Below are positions 11,910 to 28,449 of a stretch of DNA of 64,000 bases, one piece after another (position 1 is the stretch's first letter; each line of letters starts with the position of its first letter). The stretch spans positions 253,568 to 317,567 of the forward strand of contig CAZLEV010000001.1 in assembly GCA_964558645.1 (NCBI GenBank), given 5' to 3'. The notes below the pieces were generated by a model. The model was not told the DNA's origin. It made no database searches and worked only from the letters and a program-made list of their open reading frames with translations. Source of the stretch: an uncultured archaeon. Its GTDB lineage: Archaea > Asgardarchaeota > Thorarchaeia > Thorarchaeales > Thorarchaeaceae. The translations under genes were made by a program, and so were the position numbers.

Positions 11910-11923
11910 CCGTCACATGACGG
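11910..11923. promoter_or_regulatory. Palindromic operator CCGTCACATGACGG followed by TATA-like TTTTAT (11932)
   Basis: Perfect 6-bp arms; upstream of ORF 12004. Confidence 0.75.
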
Positions 11924-12003
11924 CTGATGACTTTTATCGGTGTTCTTTCAGTCCAGCATTGTCTGAATCTAGAACAACCTAGGTTCGAGCTGAGGAATTT
12001 ACA

Positions 12004-12210
12004 ATGAGTGAAAAGCAGCATAGAATTGACATTGCTTGGATCCTGGCAACTCTGGGACTTCTGGGAACTATCATGGTGGCCTTCGTGCATCTACTCACAC
12101 TTCAAGACCCTGTGAGTTCCATCGTGTACCAACTAGTGTGTGTGAGCTTCATTCTCTGTGGTATCTTCTTGGCTCTATACTCTCCTCCAACTGAGGAAGT
12201 GACAGTCTAG
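12004..12210 (+). CDS. Small two-TM membrane protein
   Basis: Two hydrophobic segments; operator and TATA-like element upstream. Confidence 0.65.
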   Translation: MSEKQHRIDIAWILATLGLLGTIMVAFVHLLTLQDPVSSIVYQLVCVSFILCGIFLALYSPPTEEVTV

Positions 12211-12560
12211 CGAGCCCACCAGCCTAGGGCAATCCGCTCACCTGATTGTTTCTGGATAGTGCAGTAGTCCCCTCTAGGCAATACGGTTGGGTTCTGCGTT
12301 GTCCTTCACTCAGCTATCTGAAAGATGTCCTGATCCAGATTGCGATGGTGCAATCTCGAGGTGTCTTCGGTCATAGCTAACTAGGTGAAGAACCATCAAC
12401 TATCATTCTCTCTAAGAGAATCATCATCGAGGAAAAGAGGTACTATCGTTGCGGGGAAGAGTTCTAACATGCACGAGGAGAGAAGCAGTATTTCCAGAGA
12501 GGACATCGGCCGCGTAGGGGTCTGCGCAATGACTCCGTTGGCGAGAGGAGGGGCGACCAA

Positions 12561-12574
12561 CAGTCACACGACGG
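12561..12574. promoter_or_regulatory. Operator variant CAGTCACACGACGG
   Basis: Close match to the consensus, ~60 nt upstream of the DUF3795 gene. Confidence 0.6.
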
Positions 12575-12635
12575 CTGAAAGTAGAATAGTCCCCTTGCAC
12601 CTAGCATGTACTACTAACAAGGGAGATGGCACAAC

Positions 12636-12899
12636 ATGGATGAGAATCTACTTGCTCCGTGTGGACACTACTGTGGTTCCTGCGTAGTGTTCACAAAGGG
12701 AAAATGTCTGGGCTGTCGGGAAGAAGGAAAGAAGCGAGCTGCCGAGGGAATCGAGTTTTGTAAGATTCAGGAGTGTGCAACTCAACGGGGCGTTGCGTGT
12801 CACGAGTGTCCCGGCATGCCCTGTGACCGATATGGAGATTCGATATATAATAGCGGCTTCATCGATTGGATACGCGAGGAGCTTCAAAAGACCGCCTGA
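12636..12899 (+). CDS. DUF3795-like Cys-rich protein
   Basis: APCGHYCGSC...CLGC...CKIQEC...CHEC..MPC. Confidence 0.85.
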   Translation: MDENLLAPCGHYCGSCVVFTKGKCLGCREEGKKRAAEGIEFCKIQECATQRGVACHECPGMPCDRYGDSIYNSGFIDWIREELQKTA

Positions 12900-12936
12900 C
12901 TCAGGCGATCTCATGATTGGGATCTACATAGCATAC

Positions 12937-13417
12937 CTAAGAGTGACCATGGCACATCTTGCCATTGAGGTGGTGCACAAAGTGGTCGCCCCTTCTCTTG
13001 AACCCTAGGCGGCGGTATAGAGTAGAAGTCGCATTTGCAGCCAGGAGGAAGACTTTGTCGACACCCATATTGGCGCACTCTTCCAAGACCTGACGAATCA
13101 TCTCGCTTGCGATCCCCTGTCTTCTCCGGTGGGGCTCTACAAACAGGTTGTGAAGGTATGCATCCACACCATTCGGCCCCTTGGGTCGTTGGTAGCGTAC
13201 ACATCGATGCAAGAGCACAGCCTCCCACCACTTCCTTCTCCTTGTATGCCAGAAAGCAAATGGGTCCATCATCCCAATTCTCTTCTAGGTGCTCCCTAAC
13301 CGATGCAGCCGTCAGCTCGAGTGAGTTACTATCCCATCCCATGGTTCGGAGCAGCTCGACTCGGTGGCGTACAATGAGTTCAACATGCGTGGGGTTAGCT
13401 CGAATCACTTGAATCAT
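12937..13417 (-). pseudogene. GNAT acetyltransferase with +1 frameshift near 13177-13186
   Basis: N-half in ORF 12911..13417 and C-half (PNGVDAYLHNLFVEPHRRRQGIA) in ORF 12937..13272; collinear with intact paralog 23178..23657. Confidence 0.88.
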
Positions 13418-13479
13418 GTATCTTCCACTCTCTTGCTATTCCTGCTAGGCTTGTGACAGAATGTACATGCCATGGTAAT

Positions 13480-13529
13480 CATTCCCTCCGGGTGCCTCGA
13501 TGTTAGGTGCACCGAGGCCGGAAGAGATG
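13480..13529 (-). ncRNA. Conserved hairpin in the GNAT 5' leader (candidate cis-regulatory RNA)
   Basis: GCCUCGGUG-cacctaa-CAUCGAGGC plus outer stem; homologous hairpin at 23719-23770 with compensatory changes. Confidence 0.45.
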
Positions 13530-13641
13530 TACGGAGTCTCCCTCACGCATCCGTTTGCCCTCGGAGATAGAGAGACCCTTTCAGTGGGTCACGAAATCAT
13601 GACCAGTGTCACATCCAGGGCGAAGGGTTCTTAGTGTCCTG

Positions 13642-13655
13642 CCGGCATGTGACTG
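13642..13655. promoter_or_regulatory. Operator variant CCGGCATGTGACTG
   Basis: 225 nt upstream of the GNAT start; same position and CACTAAGAA flank as the 23884 site. Confidence 0.65.
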
Positions 13656-14181
13656 TATCGGCCGGTCGTCAGATACAATACAGCGATGCCATGAGTTCGC
13701 TCAGTTCTGTTTCGAGTATCTCGTCTACTGGGGTGGCGGTTCCAAGCAGAAACAATGTGACCGGGGACAACTGGGTTTCGGTTCTCCGTGAGGGGATCTT
13801 GGCGAGCGCGATGCCGCTTCTCTACTTGATAGACCCCCAGGATAGGTGATTCAGCCACACCATCGGCACACATCATCCAACATCATGACCTAGTCTACAG
13901 TGTGCGTTCGCTTGAGAGTTCTCCCTCTCATCTCAAGACCCGCTGTATCTGATCACCTCTGTTCTCAGCACAACAGGCCACAGAGTGATACCGAGAGAAA
14001 CACAAGACCAACCCAGATGGCTGAAAGAGACGTGAGGTGAGCCATCGAGTGTCAAGGGGAAGGGGCTCAACACTCACATCAAAGGGAACATCCTCCCTAC
14101 GCCTCCAACCCGCCGTTCCCAGTACCGTACCGGCGTCCACGCATCAAATCTCAGCCCCTACTGGGAATTCGCTCTCGCCCC

Positions 14182-17100
14182 TCATAGGTTCCTCAGAATG
14201 AGACCAGGTTCTTCGAGCATCGCCTTTTGGGCAGCCAAGTAACAGATTACGACCATGACGAGAAACTCGATGAACAGGAAGGGAAGAATCGTAGCAAGAG
14301 GGAACGCAAGCGTGTATGCACGGAGCAGTTTGAACGGCGCAAGACCAAACGTCAGTACCGTCATGGCATAACCAAAAACGGATCCGATGATGATGCTTGT
14401 CGCAGCGGATGACATGATATTTCCTGCGAACTCTCCGAAGACTAGAGCCGTGATGTGTCTTCTTGTTCCTCCAAGTGCTCGAAAGGTAGCATACTCCATC
14501 TGTTTCTCATAGATTGCGGATGTCAGAAACAGGAGAATGCAGGCAAAGCTCAACGCCATTGCCATGTATACCATGACTTCACTCAGTCCCTGCAGGCCGG
14601 ACAGGAAAAGGGCCACCGATGGGGCAAGTTTCTCCCAGTCGAGGGTTTCGATTGAGCAGGCATCAACCCCGGGCAGGTTGTCGAGATAAGAAACAACTCT
14701 CGTGTGATTGGCGAAAGGTGCCAGTCTCACAAAGAAAAGATTTATGGACCTCTTGCTCACAATACTGGTAAGAAACTCTTGATTTACTAGCGCAAACCCC
14801 CCTCTTCCTACCTGGAACCCCAAGAGCGAAACGAATGCATCTACAGGGAGGTCCGCAGTTGCTGCCATACCTAGTCCTGGTGCACTCCTCATCACACCCA
14901 CAATTTGGAATTGGTGAGTGATGAGTTGACCCATTACGTCAAGACTGACATCGATATCCTCGCCAACACTCACATTCCAGGTGTCTGCGTAATGAGAGCT
15001 GACCACAATTCCGTTGCAAGTGTTAGAGAGCGCCGTAAGGACCTCCTCAGGAGAGGAATCAATGAAGTCGCTCTGTTGCACCTTCGCGATTGTGAGGAAC
15101 TCGTCTGGTACGATACCTTCGAGGAAGAATGAGTTGGAGCCAGCAGATGCTGCAACCTCAAAAATGGGAGTTGCCTGATAGACACCGGGAACAGCGAGCA
15201 GTGTCCTTTCGAACTCGAGTTCTCCCTGTTGAACTTGGACGCGAACATCCGCTCCTATCGCATGCTGCAATTCATATCTGATGTTCTGATCCAAACTTGC
15301 ACTCTGTACCAACACGATTGTCGCCGCACTGAGTGTTAGGTTTAAGATCGCCAACAGGGGAATGAGATGCCCTTTTCGTCTCCTGAGACTCCGACTCAGA
15401 TAGAGGCTCTTCTCTCCCAGGAGGAAGCTGATTCGCTCCAAGACGAGTGCAGCTGCGCAACGGATGACTTGAGCCGAATAATAAGCGGTGAGTAGCAGAG
15501 CTCCCGAAGTCACTGCCACGCCAGCTACAGCCATGACTCCTGCAGGAAGGAGCGCCGTCGGCAAGACTACTGCGATGGTGAGCAAGGTCACAAGAATCCC
15601 CAACTGGAGCTTGATATGGTGCTCTTCGGTCGCTCCGTGTTCGACGATTGTCATAGGTTGACCGATCTCGAAGACTGCCACGTTGCGAGAAACGTGGACA
15701 AGATAGGTCGTGGGAAGTACTAGCGATATCCCTCCTGCCAGCGCAAGTGAGAGCCATGGCACTGAGAGGTTGCTCCAGTAGATCAAATACTCGGTCGGAT
15801 TAAATGTCAAGAGGCCCATCCTGGAGTCGATGAGCGGTGCTAGGATTACGGAGAGCGCGATACCGACAATGAAGGTCAGTACGGATAGTATTGAGGCCTC
15901 GCACAGGAATGTGGCCAATATCTGATTATAGGAGGCCCCCTTGGCTCTCAGGGTGCTCACCTCTCTCTTCCGCCTGCGGACTGAGATGTCTGAAGTCAAG
16001 ACTGATAGCACTAGACTCATGACCAGCAAAGGGACTACCGCAACCGTGAGTATTCTACTCTGGGAGTAGGCTGCGATAATCCTATCGAGAAACATTGTCT
16101 CAGCGACTCCGAGAGCGTTAATGGTTGGATATTCTTCCTCAATGTAGGTCATGATGTTTCGGATGTTGGCACCCATACTCTCTACACCCGCCCGAAGAAG
16201 ACTCTGTTCTGAGGTCCGGATGAAGACTCTGGGCGGAAAGAAGCCTCTATCTCGTATCTCGTTGAGATTAGCCTCCCTCACTTGATCTTGTAGCATTATG
16301 ACTGCGTCGGTAAGGCCTAAGACTTCCACAGGTTCTTCGAAGGGGTCCCAATTCTTCCGATGGATTGAGGAGAACAGCCCGCTAAGCATGGAGCGTCGTT
16401 TTATATCGAAAATGCCCGCAACTCTCAAACCGTCTATGTCAAGCTTGCCGAGTTTCTCAGGAGTTTTTGACACCGCTGGATCTCCTCCAAATCTCAGAAG
16501 GTCAAAGCTCATCTCCATGCCTGTGCGGACCGGAATCCCGTACACCTCATTGAAGAAGGATGCGAACCCGTTGGAGACGAGGACCTCTCCCAGACTCAGG
16601 GAGAACTCGCCCTCCCAGATGAACTCTCTGGACCAATAGTCGAGAGATTTGCTGTCAACAAAGATGACCCGGGTGTCTTTGAGCCCTTGTGCATAGTTCA
16701 TGTCCATCACACGATAATGGTGCCAATCGGAATCTTGCGGCATCCTGACTATGCCGATTGTAGTAGGTGAGAGGTCGGTCGATTCCACGAATATGCTCTC
16801 TTCCGCAGCCTCCTGAGCCTGGAGAAGATGTTGGATGTTCAGCTCAGAACCTGATTCTCTCAGGGCAATCTGATAGCTGCTGTCCTGAAAATAGTCGTGG
16901 GATGCAAGAGTCATCCCTGTCGAAGTCCAGATGAAGACAGTCGTAGGAATGGCAAGGCTCAGGCTCAACACGAAGACTGTGGCAATACTCTGGAGCTTGT
17001 GGTCTTTCAGAGAAGACAGCGCGTGACTTGTTGGCCAAATCAGACCGGCAACAATCGTGCTTCTCTGGTCATTTCTCGGAGCCGGCATGACCCATCCCAC
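14182..17100 (-). CDS. FtsX/MacB-type ABC transporter permease (duplicated architecture)
   Basis: RRKREVSTLRAKGAS and EYATFRALGG motifs; two large extracytoplasmic domains. Confidence 0.9.
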   Translation of the reverse strand: MGWVMPAPRNDQRSTIVAGLIWPTSHALSSLKDHKLQSIATVFVLSLSLAIPTTVFIWTSTGMTLASHDYFQDSSYQIALRESGSELNIQHLLQAQEAAEESIFVESTDLSPTTIGIVRMPQDSDWHHYRVMDMNYAQGLKDTRVIFVDSKSLDYWSREFIWEGEFSLSLGEVLVSNGFASFFNEVYGIPVRTGMEMSFDLLRFGGDPAVSKTPEKLGKLDIDGLRVAGIFDIKRRSMLSGLFSSIHRKNWDPFEEPVEVLGLTDAVIMLQDQVREANLNEIRDRGFFPPRVFIRTSEQSLLRAGVESMGANIRNIMTYIEEEYPTINALGVAETMFLDRIIAAYSQSRILTVAVVPLLVMSLVLSVLTSDISVRRRKREVSTLRAKGASYNQILATFLCEASILSVLTFIVGIALSVILAPLIDSRMGLLTFNPTEYLIYWSNLSVPWLSLALAGGISLVLPTTYLVHVSRNVAVFEIGQPMTIVEHGATEEHHIKLQLGILVTLLTIAVVLPTALLPAGVMAVAGVAVTSGALLLTAYYSAQVIRCAAALVLERISFLLGEKSLYLSRSLRRRKGHLIPLLAILNLTLSAATIVLVQSASLDQNIRYELQHAIGADVRVQVQQGELEFERTLLAVPGVYQATPIFEVAASAGSNSFFLEGIVPDEFLTIAKVQQSDFIDSSPEEVLTALSNTCNGIVVSSHYADTWNVSVGEDIDVSLDVMGQLITHQFQIVGVMRSAPGLGMAATADLPVDAFVSLLGFQVGRGGFALVNQEFLTSIVSKRSINLFFVRLAPFANHTRVVSYLDNLPGVDACSIETLDWEKLAPSVALFLSGLQGLSEVMVYMAMALSFACILLFLTSAIYEKQMEYATFRALGGTRRHITALVFGEFAGNIMSSAATSIIIGSVFGYAMTVLTFGLAPFKLLRAYTLAFPLATILPFLFIEFLVMVVICYLAAQKAMLEEPGLILRNL

Positions 17101-17361
17101 CCGTGTGTCTCCTCACATCTTCAGACTGAGACCACGGAAGCAGGTAAGAGCCTGTGCCTTCTGCGTCTTGATTTCTTCCGAGCGTTTCTGTATATGTCTG
17201 TGAGATTCAGGATAGTCACACGGCCGAGCGGGAAAGCAGTGTTCAACTGGACGTTGCCTGCATCTCTGTTTCACTGCTACTGGCGCCACATTGCAAGAAT
17301 CCCATCGATTGACTGTCTTCACCATCATCCATCAGCATGGACGAGCTCAGTGGGAATGATA

Positions 17362-17387
17362 GTAAACTTTGTACCGTCATATGACAG
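17362..17387 (-). promoter_or_regulatory. Operator CCGTCATATGACAG (17374-17387) adjoining BRE/TATA-like TACAAAGTTTAC
   Basis: The 15-mer GTAAACTTTGTACCG is identical at 17362, 19842 and 27136. Confidence 0.75.
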
Positions 17388-17476
17388 CATCCGGGTAAGC
17401 CGCAAACTCAACGCAATGTTTCTCAAGGAACACTTGGTCTCTGATGGCCCCCCTGAGCCAATTTGTATGGCTTGAC

Positions 17477-18180
17477 TCATGTTTCCAGTCGAGGAAAGGA
17501 CTCGATGATCCGACTGAGATTGATCTCCTCCCGTTTCGATTCGGGAGCCTTCCGGAAGAGCTCGAGATAAGGAACGATTGCAGCGATGAGCTTGTTCTCC
17601 GCCTTTCGGAGATGGTCTGAATGTCTGCCCTTCGTGGCATTTGATAGTATCCGTTCGTGTAGGCAGTGAGGAGCGCCTCAATCTGCTTGTCGGTGAGTTC
17701 AGAGAACAGAGCATCAGCGGTGAGGGTGAGGGAACTGGCTATGAATCCATCAAAGGGCACCTTCCTGAGGATCTCATACGTGATGTCTCGCTGATCTAGA
17801 AGACGCATAACCTCTCTTACGTCCGACTGCTTGAAAGCTATAAGCCGATAGTGTTCCCACCCCTCCATATAGACCACGGGGCTGATCTGAAGCAGATTAC
17901 AGGCGTCAAACAAGACGGTGACAGAGTTCTCAGCATTGCATTGGCAGTCCTGAATGATCGCGTGGATATTTCCACAATCCGAGAAATGTTCTATCGTTAC
18001 TCCGATTTCTGTCGCCGCCTTTAGGAGATGCTCGGTGTCCTCATCCTCCTTTGTCACGAACTCCATGATCTCATATTGCCGATTGCACCAGAGGAACATC
18101 TTGACGTCGGAGAAGTCCCGTGACAGATTGGCAAAAGGGCAGTCATGAGTCAGACGCAAGAGAATCTCGAACATCGTCAT
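17477..18180 (-). pseudogene. HTH_10 (Bat-type) regulator with a 43-nt frameshifting deletion in the HTH
   Basis: Paralog of 27638..28384; C-terminus HLRKAENKLIAAIVPYLELFRKAPESKREEINLSRIIESFPRLET is intact in another frame. Confidence 0.9.
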
Positions 18181-18231
18181 ATGACAGAATCTGTACTCAG
18201 CGCATATATGTCCTGAGTCGTCATGTGACGG
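18174..18231 (-). promoter_or_regulatory. Paired operators (18174-18187 over the ATG; 18218-18231) flanking TATA-like CATATAT
   Basis: 44-bp spacing, same as 28378/28422. Confidence 0.8.
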
Positions 18232-18413
18232 TACCATACTCCGGTGGCCATTTCTTATGATGCCGTCCCAAGACTCGGACAGGTCCTCTGTGAGAGGGGG
18301 GACTGATGCTACTGTGCGGAGATGATACCTGCTCTGTGTCGACATTGATGAACACATCAGATCCCCCCTTCAGATGCGCGATACCGATTGGAGAAGAGAG
18401 TAGACCGGTAGGA

Positions 18414-18779
18414 CTAGTCAGCATCTCTCATCTCTCTCAGCAACTGAACCGCCTTAGCGTATTTCTCGGATTTTTGCGACCAAGATGTCAGATGGTCGCA
18501 CACGAAGTCATCGCACTCCGAGCAGTGACGCAGACCATGCTGGTCAACACAGCACTTCAATATGTGGCAGTCTGGGCTCCAGTGAATCTCACGGTCGCCC
18601 GGACAACCTCGGCAGTACATCTTCTTCTCCATAGCCTCTTTGACTCCCTCCTCCGGACCGATCCACTCCATACTCCGGTACCACTCAATCACTCTCTTGG
18701 CAGCCGATGTATCGGACGGCAAGAGTCGAATGTCACACTTCTCGCAGTCGATGCCGCAGGGCGCAATCATACTATCCAT
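18414..18779 (-). CDS. DUF3795-like Cys-rich protein
   Basis: IAPCGIDCEKC...CRGC...DCHILKCC...HCSECDDFVC. Confidence 0.88.
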   Translation of the reverse strand: MDSMIAPCGIDCEKCDIRLLPSDTSAAKRVIEWYRSMEWIGPEEGVKEAMEKKMYCRGCPGDREIHWSPDCHILKCCVDQHGLRHCSECDDFVCDHLTSWSQKSEKYAKAVQLLREMRDAD

Positions 18780-18836
18780 GTCATATCACCTCCCACTCAA
18801 TCTGAAACTCAGAGCAGGAGAGTCTGCTCCAGTAAG

Positions 18837-18850
18837 TGGTCAGTTGACAG
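18837..18850. promoter_or_regulatory. Operator variant TGGTCAGTTGACAG
   Basis: GTCA-NN-TGAC core, 58 nt upstream of the DUF3795 start. Confidence 0.5.
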
Positions 18851-18875
18851 AGCTGTGCTATGTTCCGGACCTTCA

Positions 18876-19748
18876 TCAGCATCTATCACCACTATTCTCT
18901 TTTCTCAAGGTATTTCCCAGAGGTTGCAGAAGCTCCTCAAGAGAACCTAGTTCCAAATCGGGGATAATCACATCCCTGTAAGGTTCGTTTATGCTCCTAG
19001 TTGCAGGTCTCTCTATAAGTATCGACATGATTCCCGCGGCGTTTGCCCCAGCGATGTCGGTCTCAAGCAGGTTGCCAACCATCACCGTTTCATCGGGCGA
19101 GAACCCTGTCTTCTGGAGCAGTCTGCGGAAGGAGTCAGGAGATGGTTTACAGACCGTTGCAGCTCTGACACCGGCAGAGAACTCGATTGCTGCGACTAGA
19201 GCTCTGGGACCGATGGTGATCTCCTCATTTCCGAGGTATCTGGTCTGACAGATGGGTCGCTCATCTATATATAGAAGCCGAGCCCCATCTCTCACAAGTC
19301 GCACGGCAAAGGAGACCTCCTGAACCGTGAGCCCTCGATTCAGACCAACGATAACGAAGTCTGCTGGAGGGTTGACCACCACCTCTGCACCCTGAGCCAC
19401 AAGGTCCTCATGCATTGCACTCTCCCCAATTGCAAAACACCGTGCCCCGTCCTTCTCTGAGCTAATGTACTGCGCAGTCACTGACGAACCAGTGAAGACG
19501 AGATCTTGGGTAATCTTGAAGCCGGTCCTGTTCATCGCTTCCGTGATCTCTCGAACCGACATGAAGCATATGTTCGAATAGAGTGCGGTCGTCTTTCCGC
19601 ATGTCTGGAGAAGCCCATAGAGTGCAAGTGCGTCATCATAGAGCTCAGGACCGGTCAGGGATTTCCAGAGTGTTCCTCCTATGTCAAAGATCCAGAAATC
19701 CTTACGAACAGCACCGACCAATTCCCGGCAGATATCCGCCGTCTTCAT
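18876..19748 (-). CDS. HAD-IIA (NagD-like) hydrolase with atypical catalytic motifs
   Basis: FDIGGTL, SN, CKP, GNLLETDIAGA. Confidence 0.85.
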   Translation of the reverse strand: MKTADICRELVGAVRKDFWIFDIGGTLWKSLTGPELYDDALALYGLLQTCGKTTALYSNICFMSVREITEAMNRTGFKITQDLVFTGSSVTAQYISSEKDGARCFAIGESAMHEDLVAQGAEVVVNPPADFVIVGLNRGLTVQEVSFAVRLVRDGARLLYIDERPICQTRYLGNEEITIGPRALVAAIEFSAGVRAATVCKPSPDSFRRLLQKTGFSPDETVMVGNLLETDIAGANAAGIMSILIERPATRSINEPYRDVIIPDLELGSLEELLQPLGNTLRKENSGDRC

Positions 19749-19948: not shown

Positions 19949-20956
19949 GTGACATCGAAGATGTTGAAGACCGTCCAAGGGCTACTGTGCTGTCCGGCCT
20001 GTCATGGGGACTTGGCATGGAGCATTGACGAGGAGATTCAAGAGCGAATGGTTCATACTGAGGTCAGGTGTACCGGGTGTTCACGGGCCTACGCTGTCAC
20101 AGATGAGGTAGGTGTCTTTCTACTGAATGAGACTTCTGATGACGATCTCTGGAAGGTTGTGGAGAGTGGCCTAGCACGGAGACTGAGGGAGAATCCGCAG
20201 TATGAGGAACAACTGATGAACAGTGATTTCTCTTCACTCAATGCAGCGGACAAGCTTTTACATACTACAATCCTCGATGAACGAGGCATGTATGACCTTG
20301 CGAGGGCTAGACGGAAGACTGCTGTAGAAGAGTTGTACCCCTCCCCTTACCGTGAGCAATACAAAGCAAAGAAGGGGCAGCTCCTGACGCTTCTGGCTGA
20401 AGAGAATGCCGTGATAGTAGATCTTGCCTCGGGCATGGCGGGTCTGGCGGAAGCATTTGCTGGGCTCGAAAGCCCCGTTGTCTTCAGTGATATCAGCCCG
20501 AGTGTCCTCTTCAGGAACCAGAAACGACTACGACACTTCGGGCTCTACGACAAGACCAGTCTCTTGGCATTTGATGTCCAAAGGATGCCCTTCCGTGATA
20601 GCTCCATACCTGTCTTCACTTCCAATATCGGTCTCACAAACATACGAGACAGCAAGGGCTTTGTTCAGGAACTCTCGCGCTGCCTGAGAGGAAGGGCATA
20701 CTTCATCACTTTCTTCTTTCCTGACAACGGAGATAGAAACGCTCAGTTGCTGGAGCAGCTAGACATGGAGCTTGCATTTGAAGACAGACTGCAGAAGATT
20801 GCAGAGCGCCATCTGGAGGTCGAGATTCTGTATCGAGCCAGCTCAGAAATAAAGCCCACTGTGCAGAGTGAGATATTCGGTGTCGGGATTGACGCCCTCC
20901 CCGTGGAGCCAACAACGGTGACATGGGCAATAGTCAAGATGGACCCCTACCAGTAG
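19949..20956 (+). CDS. Class I SAM-dependent methyltransferase with N-terminal Zn-ribbon (Trm112-like)
   Basis: CPAC...CTGC; VDLASGMAG; SDIS; FDVQRMPFRDSS. Confidence 0.85.
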   Translation: MTSKMLKTVQGLLCCPACHGDLAWSIDEEIQERMVHTEVRCTGCSRAYAVTDEVGVFLLNETSDDDLWKVVESGLARRLRENPQYEEQLMNSDFSSLNAADKLLHTTILDERGMYDLARARRKTAVEELYPSPYREQYKAKKGQLLTLLAEENAVIVDLASGMAGLAEAFAGLESPVVFSDISPSVLFRNQKRLRHFGLYDKTSLLAFDVQRMPFRDSSIPVFTSNIGLTNIRDSKGFVQELSRCLRGRAYFITFFFPDNGDRNAQLLEQLDMELAFEDRLQKIAERHLEVEILYRASSEIKPTVQSEIFGVGIDALPVEPTTVTWAIVKMDPYQ

Positions 20957-21296
20957 GCTCTTCTCTTTCTCCGACAGAGTCGTCCGTTCCAGAGGTGCAT
21001 GCTCCGGAGCGGATTACGGTAAGATATCCCCGCAGCTGATTGGCATATCCGAATATCCCCCTACTGAGCTTGTCGGCAATGCAATCGATGTCTGAATTCC
21101 GAACGCGCAGGACAAAGACAGATTCGAAACCGCGAAGAACTCATTGCTTGCTGGCGTGGGAAGGGATTTGGGATTTGAGCCAGAAGCCTGGAACAGAGCG
21201 AGCAAGGGGAAAAGCACGGATAGAACTGGTTCTCTTGGACCAATCTCCTCAGGCAATGGCTCAGCTCCGGCGACACGTTCAGAGCCAAGACCTCTC

Positions 21297-22142
21297 CTAG
21301 ATGAGGCGGTCAGTACCGTTCGCTCCCTCGCAACCACTACGGTCCAACTCGTGGCAGAGTCTGAAGGCTGTGACAGCGGTCTCTGTAGTCAGCAGGTTGC
21401 CCCAAGAATCACGGCAACTGAGGAGTCTGAGCAAGACATCCAGCCCGCGCTGGATAACATCATGACCTCCGGGAAGGCCTGCGGCTAGCATCGAATCCAG
21501 CAACCATGTTAGTGGTCGGACGCCAAGGGTGGGTAGCCAGCCAAGGGTCTTTTCCCTGCAGTACTGGATCGTATCCTCATCGATTTCTGCTCGGTCGGGG
21601 TACAGAGACAACAGACTCCATGTGTTATACCATGTTGCGCTCACGAGCTCTCGGTCATGCCACCGCTTGCTCAACCAATCTACCGCGGCGTTGATTAGGG
21701 GTTGGTCTCCGTGACCCAGGGATACCAGTCTCATGGGCACTGCTGCGGTGAAGTAGAACCTGTCGATTTCACTGTCAGACTGTAGCCATTCCTGCGGTGA
21801 GTGTTCCAGTTTCCGGGGAATCTCATAGAATGACCCGTCCGCATCCTGGATAGACCGGAGGAAGGTCACAGTCGTTTCCGTGACCATCGTGTCCTCAAGC
21901 CCGAACTCCCTTAACCATCGCATACAGTGGATGGTACCACCCAGCGAGCCCGTACGGGACTCTTCTTCCTCTGCGTTGGAGTAGTCCCAGCTCCCATTAT
22001 CGAACTGGTATCCCGAGAGAACCTCTGTTGCTCTATTCTTGCTCACCCTGCCCTGTAGGACCCTCTCTAGGCGAATAAGGTCAAGCCGGTTACCACTCTC
22101 TCGGATGTAGTCCAGTATCCCTCTCAGTCGCCTCTTCGACAT
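21297..22142 (-). CDS. Prenyltransferase/squalene-cyclase-repeat (alpha-alpha toroid) protein
   Basis: QW-like motifs YQFDNGSW and IQDADGSF; AAVDWL. Confidence 0.65.
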   Translation of the reverse strand: MSKRRLRGILDYIRESGNRLDLIRLERVLQGRVSKNRATEVLSGYQFDNGSWDYSNAEEEESRTGSLGGTIHCMRWLREFGLEDTMVTETTVTFLRSIQDADGSFYEIPRKLEHSPQEWLQSDSEIDRFYFTAAVPMRLVSLGHGDQPLINAAVDWLSKRWHDRELVSATWYNTWSLLSLYPDRAEIDEDTIQYCREKTLGWLPTLGVRPLTWLLDSMLAAGLPGGHDVIQRGLDVLLRLLSCRDSWGNLLTTETAVTAFRLCHELDRSGCEGANGTDRLI

Positions 22143-22148
22143 GACCTC

Positions 22149-23111
22149 CTATCTCCCATCTCGTTTCTCTCTCAGTTCGACGAGCCTCTCTGCCAGAGTG
22201 CGGATATCGCCAAGATCATTCGCATCATGAACCAGGCGAACCCACCCATGTGGGAGCGTCGAGGGATTGTAGCATGCGGAGAGGCCAGCAGCCATTGAAC
22301 CAACACAATCTGCATCACCCCCGAGACCGGCTGCGCAGATTGCGGCCTGCTCGGCGTGACGGTGGCTGATGAATATGGCCATAGCAGCGCTCACCCCCTC
22401 CCACGCAGTGAAACCCGGATTGAGTCCGAACTTGCGCAACTCCTCTATGTCTGAGCCTTGGGTCACTGTCTGACGAACCCATTCTAGCCGTCGCGACACA
22501 CGGGGACAGTAATCCTCCTCACCAATTTTCGAGTACTCAGAGTGCTGTGCTGCCCTGATGGATGCCTGCAGGATATCTTCAGGTTCTAGGTCTTCAAGCG
22601 CTGCTGAGAAGGCAGCAGCCATCGCACTGGATGCTGCCACGGCACTGCGAGAGTTGTGACTACATCTCACCAGGAGCTCGGCGTCCTTCACAAGTCTATC
22701 GATATGCCGTATGGTGTTGATGATGCCTGCTCCGGCAATCCTGATAGGCGCGCCATTGCCGATACGTGTCATGCGCACTCCCTGCTGAGCGGCTACGACC
22801 AGTCTGCTCCAACTTGGCCATCCCTTCACCTCTTCTGAACAGAGGCTGTTGATCAGATGACTCTCGTCCACGCCTTCTCGTTCAACTATGGATCTCGCAA
22901 CAATGAGTGTCAGCCTTGTGTCATCTGTGACCTCCGCTCTCTTCCAAGAATATCGAGAATTCGGCTGGATCGGCTCTCTGAACTCCTGAATAGGGTCACC
23001 ATATCGGGTGGTAATCTCCGGTGGCCAGAATCCCTCGGTCATCTTTCCGAAGGCATCACCCACTGCTATCCCATTCAGTAGTGCCTCTGTCTTGTCAATT
23101 TGCGCCCTCAT
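22149..23111 (-). CDS. ADP-ribosylglycohydrolase (DraG/ARH family)
   Basis: GDAFG, TDDT, GNGA, GGDADC. Confidence 0.92.
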   Translation of the reverse strand: MRAQIDKTEALLNGIAVGDAFGKMTEGFWPPEITTRYGDPIQEFREPIQPNSRYSWKRAEVTDDTRLTLIVARSIVEREGVDESHLINSLCSEEVKGWPSWSRLVVAAQQGVRMTRIGNGAPIRIAGAGIINTIRHIDRLVKDAELLVRCSHNSRSAVAASSAMAAAFSAALEDLEPEDILQASIRAAQHSEYSKIGEEDYCPRVSRRLEWVRQTVTQGSDIEELRKFGLNPGFTAWEGVSAAMAIFISHRHAEQAAICAAGLGGDADCVGSMAAGLSACYNPSTLPHGWVRLVHDANDLGDIRTLAERLVELREKRDGR

Positions 23112-23177
23112 GCAGTATCACCTTCGCGTGAGTTCTCTGACCTCTTCCAACATCAATGTTTTGACCCTGAATGGGAC

Positions 23178-23657
23178 TCAGGTACAGTCATACGATGAAC
23201 CGTCTGCTAGATGGTGGATGTAGTAGTCGGGTCTTCTAAGAAAGCCCTGTCGCTCGTAGAGGGTGGACTCGGGATTTGCAGCGAGGAGGGTCACCTTGTC
23301 AATCCCCATGCTGCGAGCTTCTTCCAGTACATGACTGAGCAAGAAGCTCGCAATCCCCCGCCCTCTCCAGTGAGGTTCCACGAACATGTTGTGGAGATAC
23401 GCATCCAGACCATTGGGATTCCGACTGGTGGGCAGAGTGTGCATCAATCCAAGAGCACATCCTCCGACCACATGTCCGCCGTTGTGCGCGAGATAGCAGA
23501 TGAGTGCGTTTTCCCAGTTCTTCTTCAGGTAGTCCCTCACAAATCCAGCCGTCAGCTCAAGCGACATATCATCCCATCCCATTGTTCGGAGCATCTCAAC
23601 CCGATGACGGACAACGAGTTCAGTGTGTTCAGGACCGGATCGAATCACATAGACCAT
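23178..23657 (-). CDS. GNAT acetyltransferase
   Basis: YLHNMFVEPHWRGRGIA...LYERQGF. Confidence 0.92.
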   Translation of the reverse strand: MVYVIRSGPEHTELVVRHRVEMLRTMGWDDMSLELTAGFVRDYLKKNWENALICYLAHNGGHVVGGCALGLMHTLPTSRNPNGLDAYLHNMFVEPHWRGRGIASFLLSHVLEEARSMGIDKVTLLAANPESTLYERQGFLRRPDYYIHHLADGSSYDCT

Positions 23658-23718
23658 AGTTCACATCTTCCTACAGATTTTGCAGGGGTTTCGTTGTTCG
23701 TGCTGAGTGGAAGTCTCC

Positions 23719-23770
23719 GAGTCCTCGGGGTGCCCCGGCAGCACTTTTGCCGAGGCACAAAGAAGTACTC
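23719..23770 (-). ncRNA. Conserved hairpin in the GNAT 5' leader (candidate cis-regulatory RNA)
   Basis: GCCUCGGCA-aaagugc-UGCCGGGGC plus outer GAGU/ACUC stem. Confidence 0.45.
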
Positions 23771-23883
23771 GCAGTTCTTCCAGAGGGTGACTCTGTCCCA
23801 GGAGAGATAGAGAGTGTGCGTCTCATCGGTTCACCATATCGTGACCGGCCTTGCTATGAGGTTTAGGACTTCTTAGTGTAGTG

Positions 23884-23897
23884 CCGTCACATGACGG
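23884..23897. promoter_or_regulatory. Palindromic operator (TG)CCGTCACATGACGG(CA)
   Basis: Perfect 8-bp arms; between the divergent GNAT operon and the CoaB-like operon. Confidence 0.8.
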
Positions 23898-23984
23898 CAG
23901 AAGCAAGAAACGAGTCTTCGTATATCGAGATCCGAAGACCTGCGAAGTCTTCGTACTGGCATATCGATACTTCGCAAGCAGGAG

Positions 23985-24740
23985 ATGGAGACAAGAAGAA
24001 TGACACACTGCAAGAGTGACTGTGAAAGAGTGGAAGGGCTTCTAGCTGGCTGGAGTCTGTTGGTAACAGCAGGGCCGACTAGAGGATGGGTAGACAGGAT
24101 ACGTTTCCTCACTACACCGTCTACGGGGAAGATGGGGCTGGCTGTGGCACAGTGCGCCCGTGACCTAGGGGCAGAGGTAGCGTTGGTCATAGGACCCAAC
24201 AACCTGCCGGCTCCCGAGGGCATTGAGGTGTACGACGTGGAAACACCTGACGAGATGAAAGGGATGGTCATGAGTCTGCTTCGAAAGAAGATGATTCATG
24301 GGCTGGTCGCTGCAGCGTCCGTACTTGACTATGTTCCTGAGCATGTGGAGAATCGCAGGATTCCCTCGGGTGCAAGAGAGTTTGCAGTCAGGTTTAGGCC
24401 CACTGCAAAGGTCATCAATGAGGCAAGGTTGAGACACAAGGACCTGTACATCGTTGCCTTCAAGACGGAATGGGCCCTAGATGACAGCGAGCTTCACATG
24501 TCAGCCAGGGAATTGATGGACTCGGGAGTGGCCAACGTGGTCGTAGCCAATGATGCAGCAAGAAAGGGGGCTGGGTTTGGCTGGGACACTAACCAAGTCT
24601 TGATTACGGGACCAGGCGAATCATCTGAGATTCTCCCCCTCATGTCGAAGGAAGACGTATCTTATCATCTGCTCAATCGCATCGCAAGGGACATCAGTGA
24701 CTGGTGCCAAGAGAGACGCATAGGCGGTCCGCATCGATGA
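23985..24740 (+). CDS. Stand-alone phosphopantothenate-cysteine ligase (CoaB/DFP domain)-like protein
   Basis: VTAGPT...DRIRF...STGKMG, AAASVLDY, AFKTE, VVAND; no CoaC flavoprotein domain. Confidence 0.85.
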   Translation: METRRMTHCKSDCERVEGLLAGWSLLVTAGPTRGWVDRIRFLTTPSTGKMGLAVAQCARDLGAEVALVIGPNNLPAPEGIEVYDVETPDEMKGMVMSLLRKKMIHGLVAAASVLDYVPEHVENRRIPSGAREFAVRFRPTAKVINEARLRHKDLYIVAFKTEWALDDSELHMSARELMDSGVANVVVANDAARKGAGFGWDTNQVLITGPGESSEILPLMSKEDVSYHLLNRIARDISDWCQERRIGGPHR

Positions 24741-25750
24741 AGACCATGACGGTTGAGAACAAGCGTTTTAGCTGGGGTCGAGTGGAGAGCAAAGAGGAGT
24801 TTCAGGACTTCGTTCGCGGGCTGGAGCTGCAACCACCTTTCATTGTCAAACCGAACTGGATATGCGAGGACTATGGGCATTTCACCGACCCGCTGGTACT
24901 TGAATGGGTCTTGGAGGCGCTTCATCCCGATGGAGAGCTTGTGGTGACAGAGGCCTATTCAGCCAGAAACATGCTTGTCTGCGGGGCACCCAATACGGTG
25001 AGGTTCAATGAGCAACAACTTGAGATGGTCAGGGAGTCTGAACAGGGCTTCATGGATCGAACGGGTATTGGGGACATTCTTCAAAGGCTGGATGTTGAGT
25101 ATGTGAACGTTGCCGAGGAGATGCTCGCCGGTCGGGCTGTTGAGCCATCGATTGTACGCCAAAGAGTCGTAGACTTCTATGGAGAAGTGGCGAGAGAGGA
25201 GTTCTACACCTTCATCCCTACGAAGCTCTATGCTCTGAGAGAGGGAACTTTCATCAATCTGGCCAAGTTCAAGATCTTCTTCAGTATGTGCACAAAGAAC
25301 GTCTTTGGGATGATTCCCGAGTATGTGGGATATGGCTCCCGTTATGTCTACCATGGGGAGAAGGATATACATCTCTCAGAGAACATTGTAGACATCAACC
25401 GGGTCTATCGTGCACTCTTCAACGTTGTAGGAATCGTAGAAGGGGTTAGAACCTTGAGCTGCGAGCCCGGGAAGGGCACTGCCACTCACTCTTCCAAGTT
25501 CGGCTACGACTATGATGTCATGGAGGACTGCGAGCTCGTCTACTATGGCGACGATCCTCTATGGCTTGATGCTTTCATCCATCAACAATGTGGAAGAGAC
25601 CCCGTCAAGACAGACCATCTTGGGCGCGCACTGCATTTCTTCGAACCATGGCCAGAGAGAGTCCTATCAAGAGCGATAGAGGAAGGAAACCCCCTCCTCA
25701 GATGCTCGGAAGATGAAGAGACAGGTTCTCGTGAATGGGCACCTCTCTGA
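24737..25750 (+). CDS. DUF362-like protein
   Basis: IVKPNW, TDP, INLAKFK, KNVFG..P; ATGA overlap with the upstream gene. Confidence 0.75.
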   Translation: MKTMTVENKRFSWGRVESKEEFQDFVRGLELQPPFIVKPNWICEDYGHFTDPLVLEWVLEALHPDGELVVTEAYSARNMLVCGAPNTVRFNEQQLEMVRESEQGFMDRTGIGDILQRLDVEYVNVAEEMLAGRAVEPSIVRQRVVDFYGEVAREEFYTFIPTKLYALREGTFINLAKFKIFFSMCTKNVFGMIPEYVGYGSRYVYHGEKDIHLSENIVDINRVYRALFNVVGIVEGVRTLSCEPGKGTATHSSKFGYDYDVMEDCELVYYGDDPLWLDAFIHQQCGRDPVKTDHLGRALHFFEPWPERVLSRAIEEGNPLLRCSEDEETGSREWAPL

Positions 25751-25856
25751 TCCAGGAGAACTGGGTAGTGGGTGTTGCCTATCCCGTGGTCAGAGGAAAT
25801 GACACTCATGTTCTGCCGGCCCTCGTAGACATCAGGCATCGCGGGGTACCGGTAGC

Positions 25857-26894
25857 TCAGTGGTGGGATGGCCGCTCTCTCATCCGAATGGCTTCGGAGG
25901 GACAGACCGATGCGCACAGGCCGCATCCATAGCAGAGATCTGCCGGAGCATGGGCAAGTCCGCTCCTGAGTATCATGCACCCGAATGGGCAGGACTCAAT
26001 ACAGACACCGCACCCGATGCACAGATCATGATCAACGGATGCGAGATACCCTGAAGGCTTGATACAACCTCTCATGCCGAATCTTAGGAGGGCCTGGAAC
26101 TCATGGCAACAACACGCACAGCAGCTGCAGATGGCGTTTGCTTTCTGCTGAGTTGAAAACAGTGTCATGGTGACAAGGCCTTTTCCGTTTCCCATGTTCA
26201 TCACATCCAACGCGTCGCTGATGGTCAGAGGCCTCGCCTGACCGCGGGACAGATGATACTGCGCAACCTCATCGAGGAGGATGCAGGTATCCAGAGGCCC
26301 TTCGCATTGCCCAGACAGCTTCCGGCATGTGCATTCCGTGAGTGCTATCTTCTCCGCCTGTTCCAATACACGTCTCCGCATGTCATGGTCCAAGACCTGT
26401 CTCTGAACCGGAAGTGTCTTCTGTACCGGAATCACCTCAGACGAGTGCTCCAGCCTACCTTTCTTCATTCTTGACGCAATTGTCATCACATAATACCTGT
26501 TGTAGTACTGCCTCAACTTCTCACGCTGCCCCGCATCTAAGTGATCCAGCCGGCCCTCCTTGAGCTGTGTCTTGACTATCTCAGGGAGAGGCCTCATCAT
26601 ATAGCGTGTCTTCGTGTCTGTTGTGGACCGTGAGATGAAGCCTGTCAGGTACAGTCTACCGACCCGCTCACGGACTCTATCAGGAACATCACCGCCGAGG
26701 ACGTGATTCATCTCATCTACAGTGCGAGGTGTTCGGGCAATCGAGGCAAGAATTCGTAGCTCGTCCGATGAGAGAAGATGGTTCAGCGTACGCTGTAGTA
26801 TGACCGATACGGCTGGTGTTCGAAGGGGGAGTTCGGGAGACCGTTCTTCTTTCAGTTCCACCATCACCTGCTGTGACTCTGCAGACGATTCCAC
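25857..26894 (-). CDS. 4Fe-4S dicluster protein with N-terminal winged-helix-like region
   Basis: CTCR...C...C, ICSCCACCC, CIGCGVCIESCP, CYGCGLCASVCP; GGAGG RBS. Confidence 0.9.
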   Translation of the reverse strand: MESSAESQQVMVELKEERSPELPLRTPAVSVILQRTLNHLLSSDELRILASIARTPRTVDEMNHVLGGDVPDRVRERVGRLYLTGFISRSTTDTKTRYMMRPLPEIVKTQLKEGRLDHLDAGQREKLRQYYNRYYVMTIASRMKKGRLEHSSEVIPVQKTLPVQRQVLDHDMRRRVLEQAEKIALTECTCRKLSGQCEGPLDTCILLDEVAQYHLSRGQARPLTISDALDVMNMGNGKGLVTMTLFSTQQKANAICSCCACCCHEFQALLRFGMRGCIKPSGYLASVDHDLCIGCGVCIESCPFGCMILRSGLAHAPADLCYGCGLCASVCPSEAIRMRERPSHH

Positions 26895-27135
26895 TCAGAG
26901 GCCTCCTCCGCGCCGGTCCGCGGGTGATTCTTTCCGGAGTCTACGAGCCGTACTTTCCGGTCATGACTGATTCGGATTGGCCTGTGCCAATTCATCGGGT
27001 CATTCGTGGGAGGATGCCCCTCATCGTCGTATCTGCATGTCTTGTTGGGTCCGGGAGCAGTCCTGCAAGAGGCCCTACCTATCCTGACTGTTCGGACCGT
27101 TCTTGACCTTCATAGAACATGGTTCGATCTCTCTA

Positions 27136-27161
27136 GTAAACTTTGTACCGACAGGTGACAG
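27136..27161 (-). promoter_or_regulatory. Operator CCGACAGGTGACAG (27148-27161) with TACAAAGTTTAC element
   Basis: Third copy of the shared 15-mer. Confidence 0.7.
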
Positions 27162-27255
27162 CAGCGGGTCAAGAGGAGGAGTAGAAGATGCACTCAGGAG
27201 AGCGATGAGAGGTGTGTTCGCACTCATCTGGCCTGGAGTGGAGGAGGGGCACCGT

Positions 27256-27453
27256 CTAGCGTCGCCACAAGGCAAGGACCCTCGCCTTGTGCTTCTCAAG
27301 CTCTTTCAGATGCTCCTCACTTACTCGGTGAAAATCGGGGTAGTCCCGTGAACAATCAGCGGGGACTTGCTTCTCGTTCTCAGGGGTGATTTCCTCCTCA
27401 TCTGCTTCATTCGCTTCACATGGGCCCCTGCGTTTCTTGACTAGTCGTGTCAT
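27256..27453 (-). CDS. Small hypothetical protein
   Basis: 65-aa charged ORF directly behind operator 27502. Confidence 0.4.
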   Translation of the reverse strand: MTRLVKKRRGPCEANEADEEEITPENEKQVPADCSRDYPDFHRVSEEHLKELEKHKARVLALWRR

Positions 27454-27501
27454 GTTGGGTCTTCACGACATCACCCACTGGAAATCGTCGTAAGTCTTGC
27501 A

Positions 27502-27515
27502 CCGGCATGTGACAG
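27502..27515. promoter_or_regulatory. Operator CCGGCATGTGACAG
   Basis: Followed on the minus strand by TGCAAGACTTAC. Confidence 0.7.
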
Positions 27516-27637
27516 TACTATCCCGGTTATAGAGGAGAGAACTTGGAGATTGAGGGGTGCTCAAGGTCATGAGGACTGTTGACTCAATCTGGGCCATATG
27601 AAACAGATCTGTCAGAGGAAGAGAATCTCACTTCTTT

Positions 27638-28384
27638 TCAGGCCTCGAGTCGAGGAAAGGACTCGATGACCCGACTGAGATTGATCTCCTCTCGCTTCGA
27701 TTCGGGGGCCTTTCTGAAGAGTTCTAGATAGGGAACGAGGGCTGCAACGAGCTTGTTCTCAGCCTTTCTGAGATGCTCCTGGAATGTCGTTCGAACTACA
27801 TCAGCTTTCCTAGATATGGTCCGAACATCTGCCCCGCGCGGTATCTGATAATACCCGTTGGTATAGGCTGTGAGGAGAGCGTCGATCTGCTTGTCTGTAA
27901 GATCAGAAAAGAGGGCATCAGCTGTGAGAGTCAGAGAGCTTGCTATGAATCCGTCAAAGGGCACCTTTCGAAGTATCTCTGACTCAATCCCGCGCTTGTC
28001 CAACAGCCGCATCATCTCAGAGAAGTGGCTCTGTTTGAATGCCACCAGACGGTAGTGTTCCCATCCCTCCATGTACACAACGGGACTGATCTGAAGGAGG
28101 TTGCAGGAGTCAAAGAGGACGCTGACCGAGTTATCTTCAGTGCACTGGCAGTCCTTGGTGACTGCGTGTATGTTTCCACAGTCAGAGAAATGCTCCACAG
28201 TTGTGCCAATCGAAGCTGCGGCCTCAAGAAGTCCATCGATGTCCTCATAACCGTGAGTCACGAACTCCATGATCTCATGGTGGCGGTTACACCAGAGAAA
28301 CATCTTCACGTCGGGAAAGCGCCGCGAGAGATTCGCGAATGGGCAATCGTGTGTGAGCCTCAGCAGAATCTCAAACATCGTCAT
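27638..28384 (-). CDS. HTH_10 (Bat/NarO/DmsR-type) transcriptional regulator with Cys/His-rich N-domain
   Basis: LTDKQIDALLTAYTNGYYQIPR...TTFQEHLRKAENKL; HDCPF, WCN, HFSDCGNIH, DCQC. Confidence 0.93.
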   Translation of the reverse strand: MTMFEILLRLTHDCPFANLSRRFPDVKMFLWCNRHHEIMEFVTHGYEDIDGLLEAAASIGTTVEHFSDCGNIHAVTKDCQCTEDNSVSVLFDSCNLLQISPVVYMEGWEHYRLVAFKQSHFSEMMRLLDKRGIESEILRKVPFDGFIASSLTLTADALFSDLTDKQIDALLTAYTNGYYQIPRGADVRTISRKADVVRTTFQEHLRKAENKLVAALVPYLELFRKAPESKREEINLSRVIESFPRLEA

Positions 28385-28449
28385 ATGACAATACTAGCGT
28401 TCTGTCCATATATGCTCTGAGCCGTCACGTGACAGCACTACGCATAAAT
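28378..28449. promoter_or_regulatory. Paired operators (28378-28391 over the ATG; 28422-28435) with TATA-like elements on both sides of 28422
   Basis: CATATAT on the minus side and CATAAAT on the plus side, each starting at the 8th nt from the operator. Confidence 0.8.

Follow-up and report, generated by a model that had tools for sequence, protein, structure and literature searches.

A 14-bp palindrome as the probable operator of presumably autoregulated HVO_A0563_N/HTH_10 regulators in a Thorarchaeota genome and its relatives

We studied a 64-kb stretch of the genome of an uncultured thorarchaeon (C1:253568-317567 of an assembly of 3.63 Mb in 37 contigs; hereafter, the window), in which copies of a 14-bp palindrome are spread over an island of genes at 11910-28435, around the gene (27638-28384) of a 248-aa protein with a C-terminal HTH_10 domain. 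The motif is real and non-random: it is enriched in the island, keeps a constant geometry to predicted promoter elements, co-occurs with one type of regulator and is conserved across clades. We consider it probable that the palindrome is the cognate operator of regulators that combine an N-terminal HVO_A0563_N domain with HTH_10, within the circuit proposed below. Comparison of sequences solidly supports the two as a candidate operator-regulator pair, which would resemble in its action those autoregulated archaeal transcription factors whose site lies next to the TFB-recognition element (BRE) and the TATA box; that the regulator binds, in which direction it acts and what it senses we infer from these patterns. 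Gene regulation in Asgard archaea and Bathyarchaeia, which are largely uncultured, is to our knowledge almost unexplored. In the literature searched, including the topics HTH_10 and DUF3795, we found no description of this operator or of any regulon of Thorarchaeota or Bathyarchaeia, in agreement with a preliminary description of the window, which knew of no such operator in Asgard archaea.

That description had listed about 13 copies of the pattern CCGTCANNTGACRG. A palindrome-like 14-mer is indeed present at all 13 positions, but only four of them (11910, 17374, 23884 and 28422) match the literal pattern exactly, where 0.03 exact matches are expected in 64 kb. With mismatches counted against the 14-bp reference palindrome CCGTCANNTGACGG, there are 10 sites with at most two mismatches in the window, every one of them inside 11910-28435, and none in the remaining 47 kb, so that the claimed lack of comparable copies elsewhere in the window holds. 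The whole genome contains 127 matches at this level, which corresponds to 0.58 expected per 16.5 kb versus the 10 seen (Poisson P ~7e-10). At the level of three mismatches, 33 matches are found in the window and 27 are expected, which is what chance would give; therefore, the three claimed sites at this level need other support. We grade the 13 sites as 10 solid ones, one backed by paralogy (28378), one decayed remnant (19854) and one doubtful site (18837). Of the genome's sites with at most one mismatch (17 in one count, 10 in another), eight fall in two islands that make up 0.7% of its length, i.e., the motif is not equally frequent genome-wide, and one further site among the 10 adjoins a fourth HTH_10 gene, of another type. 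An unguided de novo repeat search recovered the same motif families independently.

Gene calls were taken from two public contigs with the same DNA and combined with Pfam and NCBIfam scans; a codon-usage gene caller missed several genes of the island and served only as a rough label of coding and non-coding DNA. According to these gene calls no site falls within a credible gene, except for those on the ATG of the regulators, as had been noted earlier, and the motif does not occur within coding DNA of the island; the called open reading frames (ORFs) that overlap sites are one over-extended regulator ORF and small ORFs without homologues. A solid site stands upstream of 12 of the approximately 14 transcription units in the island, which bears out the earlier statement that nearly every unit is preceded by one, and the distance from site to ATG ranges from 37 to 253 nt. 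The consensus operator is CCGTCAYRTGACGG, with the invariant core G-W-C-A-Y-R-T-G-W-C.

The regulator at 27638-28384 matches HTH_10 (PF04967) with 61.8 bits versus a cut-off of 23.1, over positions 1-52 of the 53 in the profile, and HVO_A0563_N (PF24280) with 65.3 bits versus a cut-off of 27. The Pfam scan gives only these two domains in it, with no GAF, PAS or BAT domain and, judged by this domain content, the regulators are not of the Bat type. Genes with both PF24280 and HTH_10 number exactly three in the genome, and all of them are within the two clusters of the motif. Across 63 sequences, W31, C32, N33, C79, C81 and H118 are invariant or nearly so. In the structure model of the regulator (pLDDT 82), the N-terminal domain is built of two beta-alpha-beta units, and the C-terminal DNA-binding domain is helical. 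A Foldseek search of this model against PDB gave weak matches only: the best one for the N-terminal domain is Thermoplasma Ta1207, with a template-modelling (TM) score of 0.42, and entries of TraR/LuxR type have E values of 5e-3 to 5e-2 and TM scores of ~0.2. The function is not readable from these matches to a predicted structure.

The preliminary description had placed two HTH_10 regulators in the island. The copy at 27638-28384 is intact, but that at 17477-18180 (minus strand) is a pseudogene: relative to its paralogue it has an out-of-frame deletion of 43 bp between 17615 and 17614. What is lost is the coding sequence for the last part of helix 2 and the first part of the recognition helix of HTH_10 and, with the frame shifted, only positions 1-32 of the 53 in the profile are matched. 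A contig from an independent sediment sample, obtained in another study, crosses the deletion junction without a gap; therefore, the deletion is not an assembly error. Among sequencing runs, the DNA of the window is listed in two DNA runs, both from marine sediment, and in no RNA run. A similar state was observed in a Thorarchaeota regulator copy of another genome (G004:C66:13188-13901), which has an in-frame TAA, while its operator still stands 37 nt before the ATG; this is apparently a decaying paralogue.

The island is not a self-contained regulon, as had been proposed. Elsewhere in the genome, sites cluster only on contig C4 (64.6-73.7 kb), where six of them surround the third PF24280/HTH_10 gene. 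Paralogues with 55-80% protein identity are present there for DUF3795a, CoaB, DUF362, the ferredoxin-domain protein, the small protein sm65, GNAT294, DUF3795b, the HAD hydrolase and the methyltransferase (all described below).

The argument is carried by a comparison between phyla, for which one genome per species was scanned, yielding 80 loci with relatives of the regulator. Bathyarchaeia (up to 58% identity) and Thorarchaeota (~44%) contribute most of these; single loci are labelled Atabeyarchaeia and Hermodarchaeota. Genomes of the same family as that of the window have regulators identical to those of named Thorarchaeota metagenome-assembled genomes, which makes the host a Thorarchaeote. 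We compared the 90 nt upstream of each regulator gene. In a strict count, the palindrome is present upstream of 60 of 69 orthologous genes, its 5' edge being at -50/-51 relative to the ATG in 44, at -52/-53 in four, at -62 to -64 in 10, and elsewhere in two (-74 and -18); most of the nine remaining orthologues have one-base variants of the core. An operator at the regulator's own promoter, kept across orthologues (in the range -50 to -53 or the range -62 to -64 for 58 genes), is what autoregulation would predict. In the recurring layout, the palindrome is followed by 8 nt, then by ATAAAT or ATATAT, then by ~22 nt and the ATG. The subclade with the site at -62/-63 has 12 nt of extra leader with GGTG; the spacing from site to TATA box is unchanged in it, and the distance from TATA box to ATG is longer. 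Therefore, the site is tied to the promoter and not to the reading frame.

Hexamers consisting of A and T only that start at +9 after the site were found in 45 of the 180 flanks in relatives, versus roughly 1-7 at most offsets other than the peak, and the same +9 peak is seen in this genome (16 of 38 flanks at five of six A/T). Thus, the site is upstream of and adjacent to the BRE/TATA element and overlaps neither the TATA box nor the start. The TATA box of the regulators lies at -28 to -23 from the ATG, so their mRNAs should be leaderless. With at most one mismatch allowed, the pattern was found 10 times in this genome versus 0-3 times in each of 24 relatives, which equals the reversed-pattern control; related genomes without this regulator clade have such control-level counts (0-3). 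Five chromosome-level metagenome-assembled genomes (four Bathyarchaeota, one Atabeyarchaeia) have 1-3 copies each, and a near-perfect copy is at the regulator promoter in four of the five. The co-occurrence of motif and regulator that had been put forward for testing is, thus, evident both within this genome and among its relatives.

The operator differs between regulator clades. The form with GTCA half-sites, CCGTCAYRTGACGG, belongs to the Bathyarchaeia-type clade and to this genome; CCGACATATGTCGG, with GACA half-sites, belongs to the main Thorarchaeota clade; and ACGTCATATGACGT and CTGTCATATGRCAG belong to two minor Thorarchaeota clades. The recognition helix R-T-T-F-x-E-H-L is otherwise invariant, with residue 202 being Q in 33 of 33 GTCA-type proteins, including the intact regulator of the window, and L in 16 of 16 GACA-type proteins.

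When the genes directly behind sites in the related loci were clustered, two groups of small proteins emerged besides the regulator (23 Bathyarchaeia loci and 16 Thorarchaeota loci). They share with sm65 and sm71, the two small proteins of the island, a C-terminal helix motif of approximately A-L-x-E-x-E-x-R/K-K-A-x-A-L, and many end in S-F-I-R/C. A profile of this family finds two copies in this genome and detects the gene in 52 of the 80 loci, a set with many truncated members; in 39 of the loci, the gene is directly behind a site. From this recurrence, the ancestral circuit, common to Bathyarchaeia and Thorarchaeota, appears to be the regulator plus a protein of 65-80 aa, each behind an operator. 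A search of the ESM Atlas with the small protein gave no usable match, and the predicted complex of regulator and small protein had a score of 0.00, which we counted neither way. The operator contains the E-box-like core CAYRTG, and no basic helix-loop-helix (bHLH) partner for it was found: there is no Pfam match, bHLH included, with E up to 1 for sm65, sm71 and the small proteins L059 and L024, and no bHLH match among the other island proteins scanned. The likeness is most likely coincidental, as had been supposed.

DUF3795 genes are the next most frequent targets behind sites. For example, an independent island with several operators was found in the Bathyarchaeota isolate PFL10 (L064:1-10026), where six sites accompany two regulators (one apparently truncated), five DUF3795 genes, a HAD gene, a gene for a TrmB-type winged helix-turn-helix (wHTH)/ferredoxin protein, and DUF3788, SDR and AzlC genes.

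We propose the following mechanism. The regulators, of which the intact copies are 27638-28384 and the C4 paralogue, would bind the palindrome presumably as dimers. With 8 nt between its end and a TATA-like hexamer, the operator would abut the position of BRE, where the bound regulator most likely helps to recruit TFB and TBP, i.e., activates transcription. Activation is mildly favoured over repression because the site adjoins BRE as it does for known activators and because characterised HTH_10 proteins have been reported as activators. At the presumably leaderless promoters of the regulators themselves, a second operator over the start codon and transcription start would probably provide negative feedback. 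The two paralogous islands appear to have placed ~20 operators before genes for DUF3795, GNAT, HAD, methyltransferase, ADP-ribosylglycohydrolase, CoaB-DUF362, ferredoxin-domain and FtsX-permease proteins, and the circuit would have been extended in this genome to ~14 transcription units. It is probably the N-terminal domain that senses the signal, and the conserved C32, C79, C81 and H118 suggest a redox or metal input (metal, Fe-S or thiol). We infer a redox/metal or chemical-stress theme, which the preliminary description had likewise suggested, from the gene content and these Cys/His residues of the sensor domain. It should be kept in mind that all family matches other than those of the two regulator domains are generic and below equivalog cut-offs; therefore, the physiological theme (Fe-S/redox, small-molecule modification, export) remains a guess.

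Several points weigh against this proposal. One of the two regulator copies in the window is dead, though its operators are kept. The intergenic regions of the two islands are 70-80% identical overall, and the sites are not visibly better kept than their flanks; these spacers are too alike for footprinting, which is why the comparison between phyla has to carry the argument, and many of the 69 loci there are close relatives, so that the counts overstate the independent support. The covariation of Q202 and L202 with the half-sites is a single evolutionary event, and the code read from it is a hypothesis, not a statistical result. Furthermore, activation is argued from the position of the site, and a protein beside BRE could equally block TFB; several promoters have good TATA boxes (ATATAT, ATAAAT and AAAGTTTAC), which are more typical of repressed promoters. 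Finally, the island encodes a second possible DNA-binding protein, the wHTH-ferredoxin at 25857-26894.

Some of these points lead to a tentative alternative, which we hold to be less probable than the circuit as proposed, namely that the same operator-regulator pair acts in repression, with the regulator blocking TFB or RNA polymerase at BRE and at its own start codon until the signal arrives, so that a stress or detoxification set of genes is derepressed. The well-formed TATA elements would fit this, as would the second site directly on the ATG and transcription start in all three paralogues of this genome, and the pairs of tandem sites, 13-25 bp apart, at many Bathyarchaeia promoters, which are a common repressor layout. 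However, the start-codon site is confined to the three paralogues of this genome and one Atabeyarchaeia locus, and most promoters have a single site, which stops 8 nt short of the TATA box and is clear of both TATA box and start. A site just upstream of BRE/TATA is the activating position for Ptr2, TFB-RF1, SurR and TrmBL1, and Bat and NarO have been reported as activators.

That some other factor encoded nearby binds the palindrome, either the wHTH-ferredoxin protein or the 65-80-aa protein, with the HTH_10 protein as a mere member of the regulon, seems improbable to us. The L064 homologue of the 345-aa wHTH-ferredoxin protein of the window has an N-terminus that scores as a TrmB winged helix, and the small protein accompanies the operator in 52 of 80 loci; nevertheless, of the 81 loci searched only 6 have the wHTH-ferredoxin gene, whereas about 60 of 69 regulator promoters have an operator, no DNA-binding domain is recognisable in the small proteins, and the operator variants follow the clades of the HTH_10 protein. 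Lack of any regulatory function, i.e., copies left by segmental duplication, a small mobile repeat or chance palindromes, is more improbable still and hardly tenable. It is true that the islands are paralogous and that flanks are common to several copies (TACAAAGTTTAC at 17374, 19854 and 27148; CACTAAGAA at 13642 and 23884), yet at least five unrelated classes of flank have only the 14-mer in common, the position before TATA boxes is fixed in two phyla, and changes of the central bases preserve the palindrome (CACATG, CATGTG, CATATG and CACGTG). Moreover, there is no match to an Rfam family in 11000-30000, and no tandem array or transposase was found around the motif copies.

The operator-regulator pair with activation from beside BRE, thus, remains the circuit that we prefer. 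An extended version of it is speculative, and we regard it as rather doubtful: an old redox/metal switch of Bathyarchaeia and Asgard archaea would consist of the Cys/His sensor-regulator, the operator 8 bp before the TATA box and the 65-80-aa protein, which would modulate the regulator; it would have captured ~14-20 promoters of Fe-S and small-molecule-modifying genes in this genome, with a specificity code of Q202 for GTCA and L202 for GACA. If this three-part switch were true, it would be the first transcription-factor regulon to be defined in any Asgard archaeon, and one whose specificity code can be read.

The origin of the circuit in this genome may involve transfer. With a G+C content of 0.524, the island ranks among the highest 1.7% of genome windows, and a query with the window protein did not find the regulator in two other genomes of the same genus (95% and 87% complete). 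In a quick tree the regulators of the window fall among those of Bathyarchaeia, with moderate support (SH-aLRT 81-84). Placement as sister to the main Thorarchaeota clade is not rejected by the approximately unbiased (AU) test (p 0.50), and an earlier rejection by this test applied to all Thorarchaeota sequences grouped together, which do not form a single clade in any case. A transfer of the regulators from Bathyarchaeia is no more than a possibility.

Among known systems, the closest in architecture are HVO_A0563-type proteins, which have the same two domains, PF24280 and PF04967, both above Pfam cut-offs; a control search finds this family in Haloferax volcanii, and no paper on HVO_A0563 was found in the literature searched. 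The haloarchaeal HTH_10 proteins (Bat, and NarO and DmsR of Haloferax) likewise have a C-terminal HTH_10 behind an N-terminal sensor and a short upstream sequence near the promoter. The upstream activating sequence (UAS) of bop lies ~40-50 bp before a near-leaderless start, which resembles the position of -37 to -50 here. However, the sensor here is HVO_A0563_N, the hosts are Thorarchaeota and Bathyarchaeia and not halophiles, the content of the regulon is different, and the operator is unrelated to the CGAA-type semi-palindrome of haloarchaeal denitrification promoters. For Bat, a UAS is located 5' of bop, brp and crtB1 (PMC1447603), and NarO was reported as an activator of nar and a repressor of dms (PMC10062603).

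A site 8 nt before a TATA hexamer, next to BRE, is shared with Ptr2, TFB-RF1, GvpE and, in their activating mode, SurR and TrmBL1, although these belong to unrelated protein families. LuxR/TraR-type proteins combine a ligand-type N-terminal domain with a small helical DNA-binding domain that, as a dimer, recognises a palindrome, as is presumed here; however, the structural similarity is weak, and the regulators of the window are not members of that family.

The proposed system would be a compact, sequence-defined circuit of uncultured archaea, in which a regulator and a conserved small partner gene go together with a 14-bp operator of strict promoter geometry and with natural variants of specificity, and it would be testable with recombinant protein alone. 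Co-regulation would provide a first functional context for DUF3795, DUF362 and the unannotated family of small proteins, and the islands would illustrate the growth of a two-gene autoregulatory module into a regulon of ~14 transcription units. They also provide predicted archaeal promoters, with BRE/TATA elements and leaderless starts, for lineages without mapped ones.

The individual sites and genes of the island are as follows, with targets being predictions. The first operator (11910-11923) is the perfect palindrome CCGTCACATGACGG, with TTTTAT 8 nt downstream, and it lies 80 nt before the ATG of a 68-aa membrane protein (12004-12210, plus strand). A site with two mismatches (12561-12574), homologous to that at C4:64636, is 61 nt upstream of its target DUF3795a (12636-12899, plus), which has a CX3CX2C motif. 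Another site with two mismatches (13642-13655) lies 224 nt upstream of the putative target p168 (12911-13417, minus), a 168-aa paralogue of GNAT159 with no Pfam match of its own. The operator at 17374-17387, with one mismatch, is followed on the minus strand by TACAAAGTTTAC, a BRE/TATA-like flank; its predicted targets are sm71 (17113-17328, minus), the second copy of the small-protein family, and, probably, the FtsX/MacB-type permease of 968 aa behind it (14182-17088, minus).

The regulator pseudogene has an upstream operator at 18218-18231, with the 5' edge at -51 and ATATAT following after 8 nt, and a second operator (18174-18187) that spans its ATG. The doubtful site at 18837-18850, with three mismatches, is 57 nt upstream of DUF3795b (18414-18779, minus; 121 aa), for which it is the only site; there is no TATA box at +9, and the site is not kept in the C4 paralogue. 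A gene for a HAD-IIA hydrolase (18876-19748, minus) and a divergent gene for a Trm112-like domain with a class I methyltransferase (19961-20956, plus) share a decayed site in their spacer, the degenerate remnant CCGGCAGACGCCGG at 19854-19867, which has retained the TACAAAGTTTAC flank; its homologue at C4:73726 is a good site.

A perfect operator (23884-23897) stands between two divergent operons, that of GNAT159, an ADP-ribosylglycohydrolase and a 281-aa protein without known family (21297-23657, minus), and that of a CoaB-like protein (DFP C-terminal domain) and DUF362 (24000-25750, plus). The site at 27148-27161, with two mismatches and the TACAAAGTTTAC flank, is 253 nt upstream of the wHTH-ferredoxin gene (25857-26894, minus), which encodes 345 aa with a C-terminal 2x[4Fe-4S] domain. 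At 27502-27515 a site with two mismatches, homologous to C4:69154, is 48 nt upstream of sm65 (27256-27453, minus), which represents the conserved 65-80-aa partner-gene family and has no Pfam family.

The intact regulator (27638-28384, minus) shares its upstream operator, at 28422-28435 with the 5' edge at -51, with the divergent GNAT294 (28492-29376, plus); a TATA hexamer is 8 nt away on either side (28408-28413 and 28444-28449). Its second operator (28378-28391), with three mismatches, spans the ATG and reads TTGTCAT-ATG-ACGA on the minus strand. This site is supported because it is the positional paralogue of 18174 and C4:70029, on the start codon of a regulator. On the coding strand, the start-codon operator has the form TGTCAT-ATG-ACG and encodes Met-Thr; a distance of 44 bp separates it from the first operator, and the TATA box lies in this interval.

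Some further observations concern the surroundings of these genes. The spacers of ~225 nt between operator/TATA box and ATG of the two GNAT paralogues (13418-13641 and 23658-23883, minus) have 74% mutual identity; they could be long 5' leaders or hide a small ORF, and they have no Rfam match. Both DUF3795 proteins start with C-x3-C-x2-C; together with additional Cys pairs, this hints at an Fe-S or zinc site in this uncharacterised family. A gene for a PAS-GAF-PAS histidine kinase (9471-11471, plus) ends 440 nt before the first operator, and no response regulator was seen in the island.

Outside the two islands, candidates were listed with a position weight matrix (PWM); its ranking of genome matches is circular for the training sites, and it served only for this list. 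None of the remote candidates (C2:340052, C17:304, those on C9 and C11, and C6:120491) was convincing. At C2:340052 there is an operator-like CTGTCAGATGACGG followed by TACAAT, 73 nt upstream of a gene for a hydrolase of metallo-beta-lactamase fold; it is a possible remote member of the regulon, but without a clear TATA box at +9. Contigs C9 (116-122 kb) and C11 (8-14 kb) share at least several kb of identical sequence, motif matches and genes included, and this represents either a duplicated stretch in the assembly or overlapping contigs. The fourth HTH_10 regulator, which lacks PF24280, is at C23:24524-26246, in divergent orientation to a gene for an EamA transporter; between the two genes, directly at the start of the regulator, lies the related palindrome CCGTCACAGGACGG. 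The same layout, with CCGTCCTATGACGG/AG, was found in two relatives (G009 and G003), and this looks like a sister operator-regulator pair.

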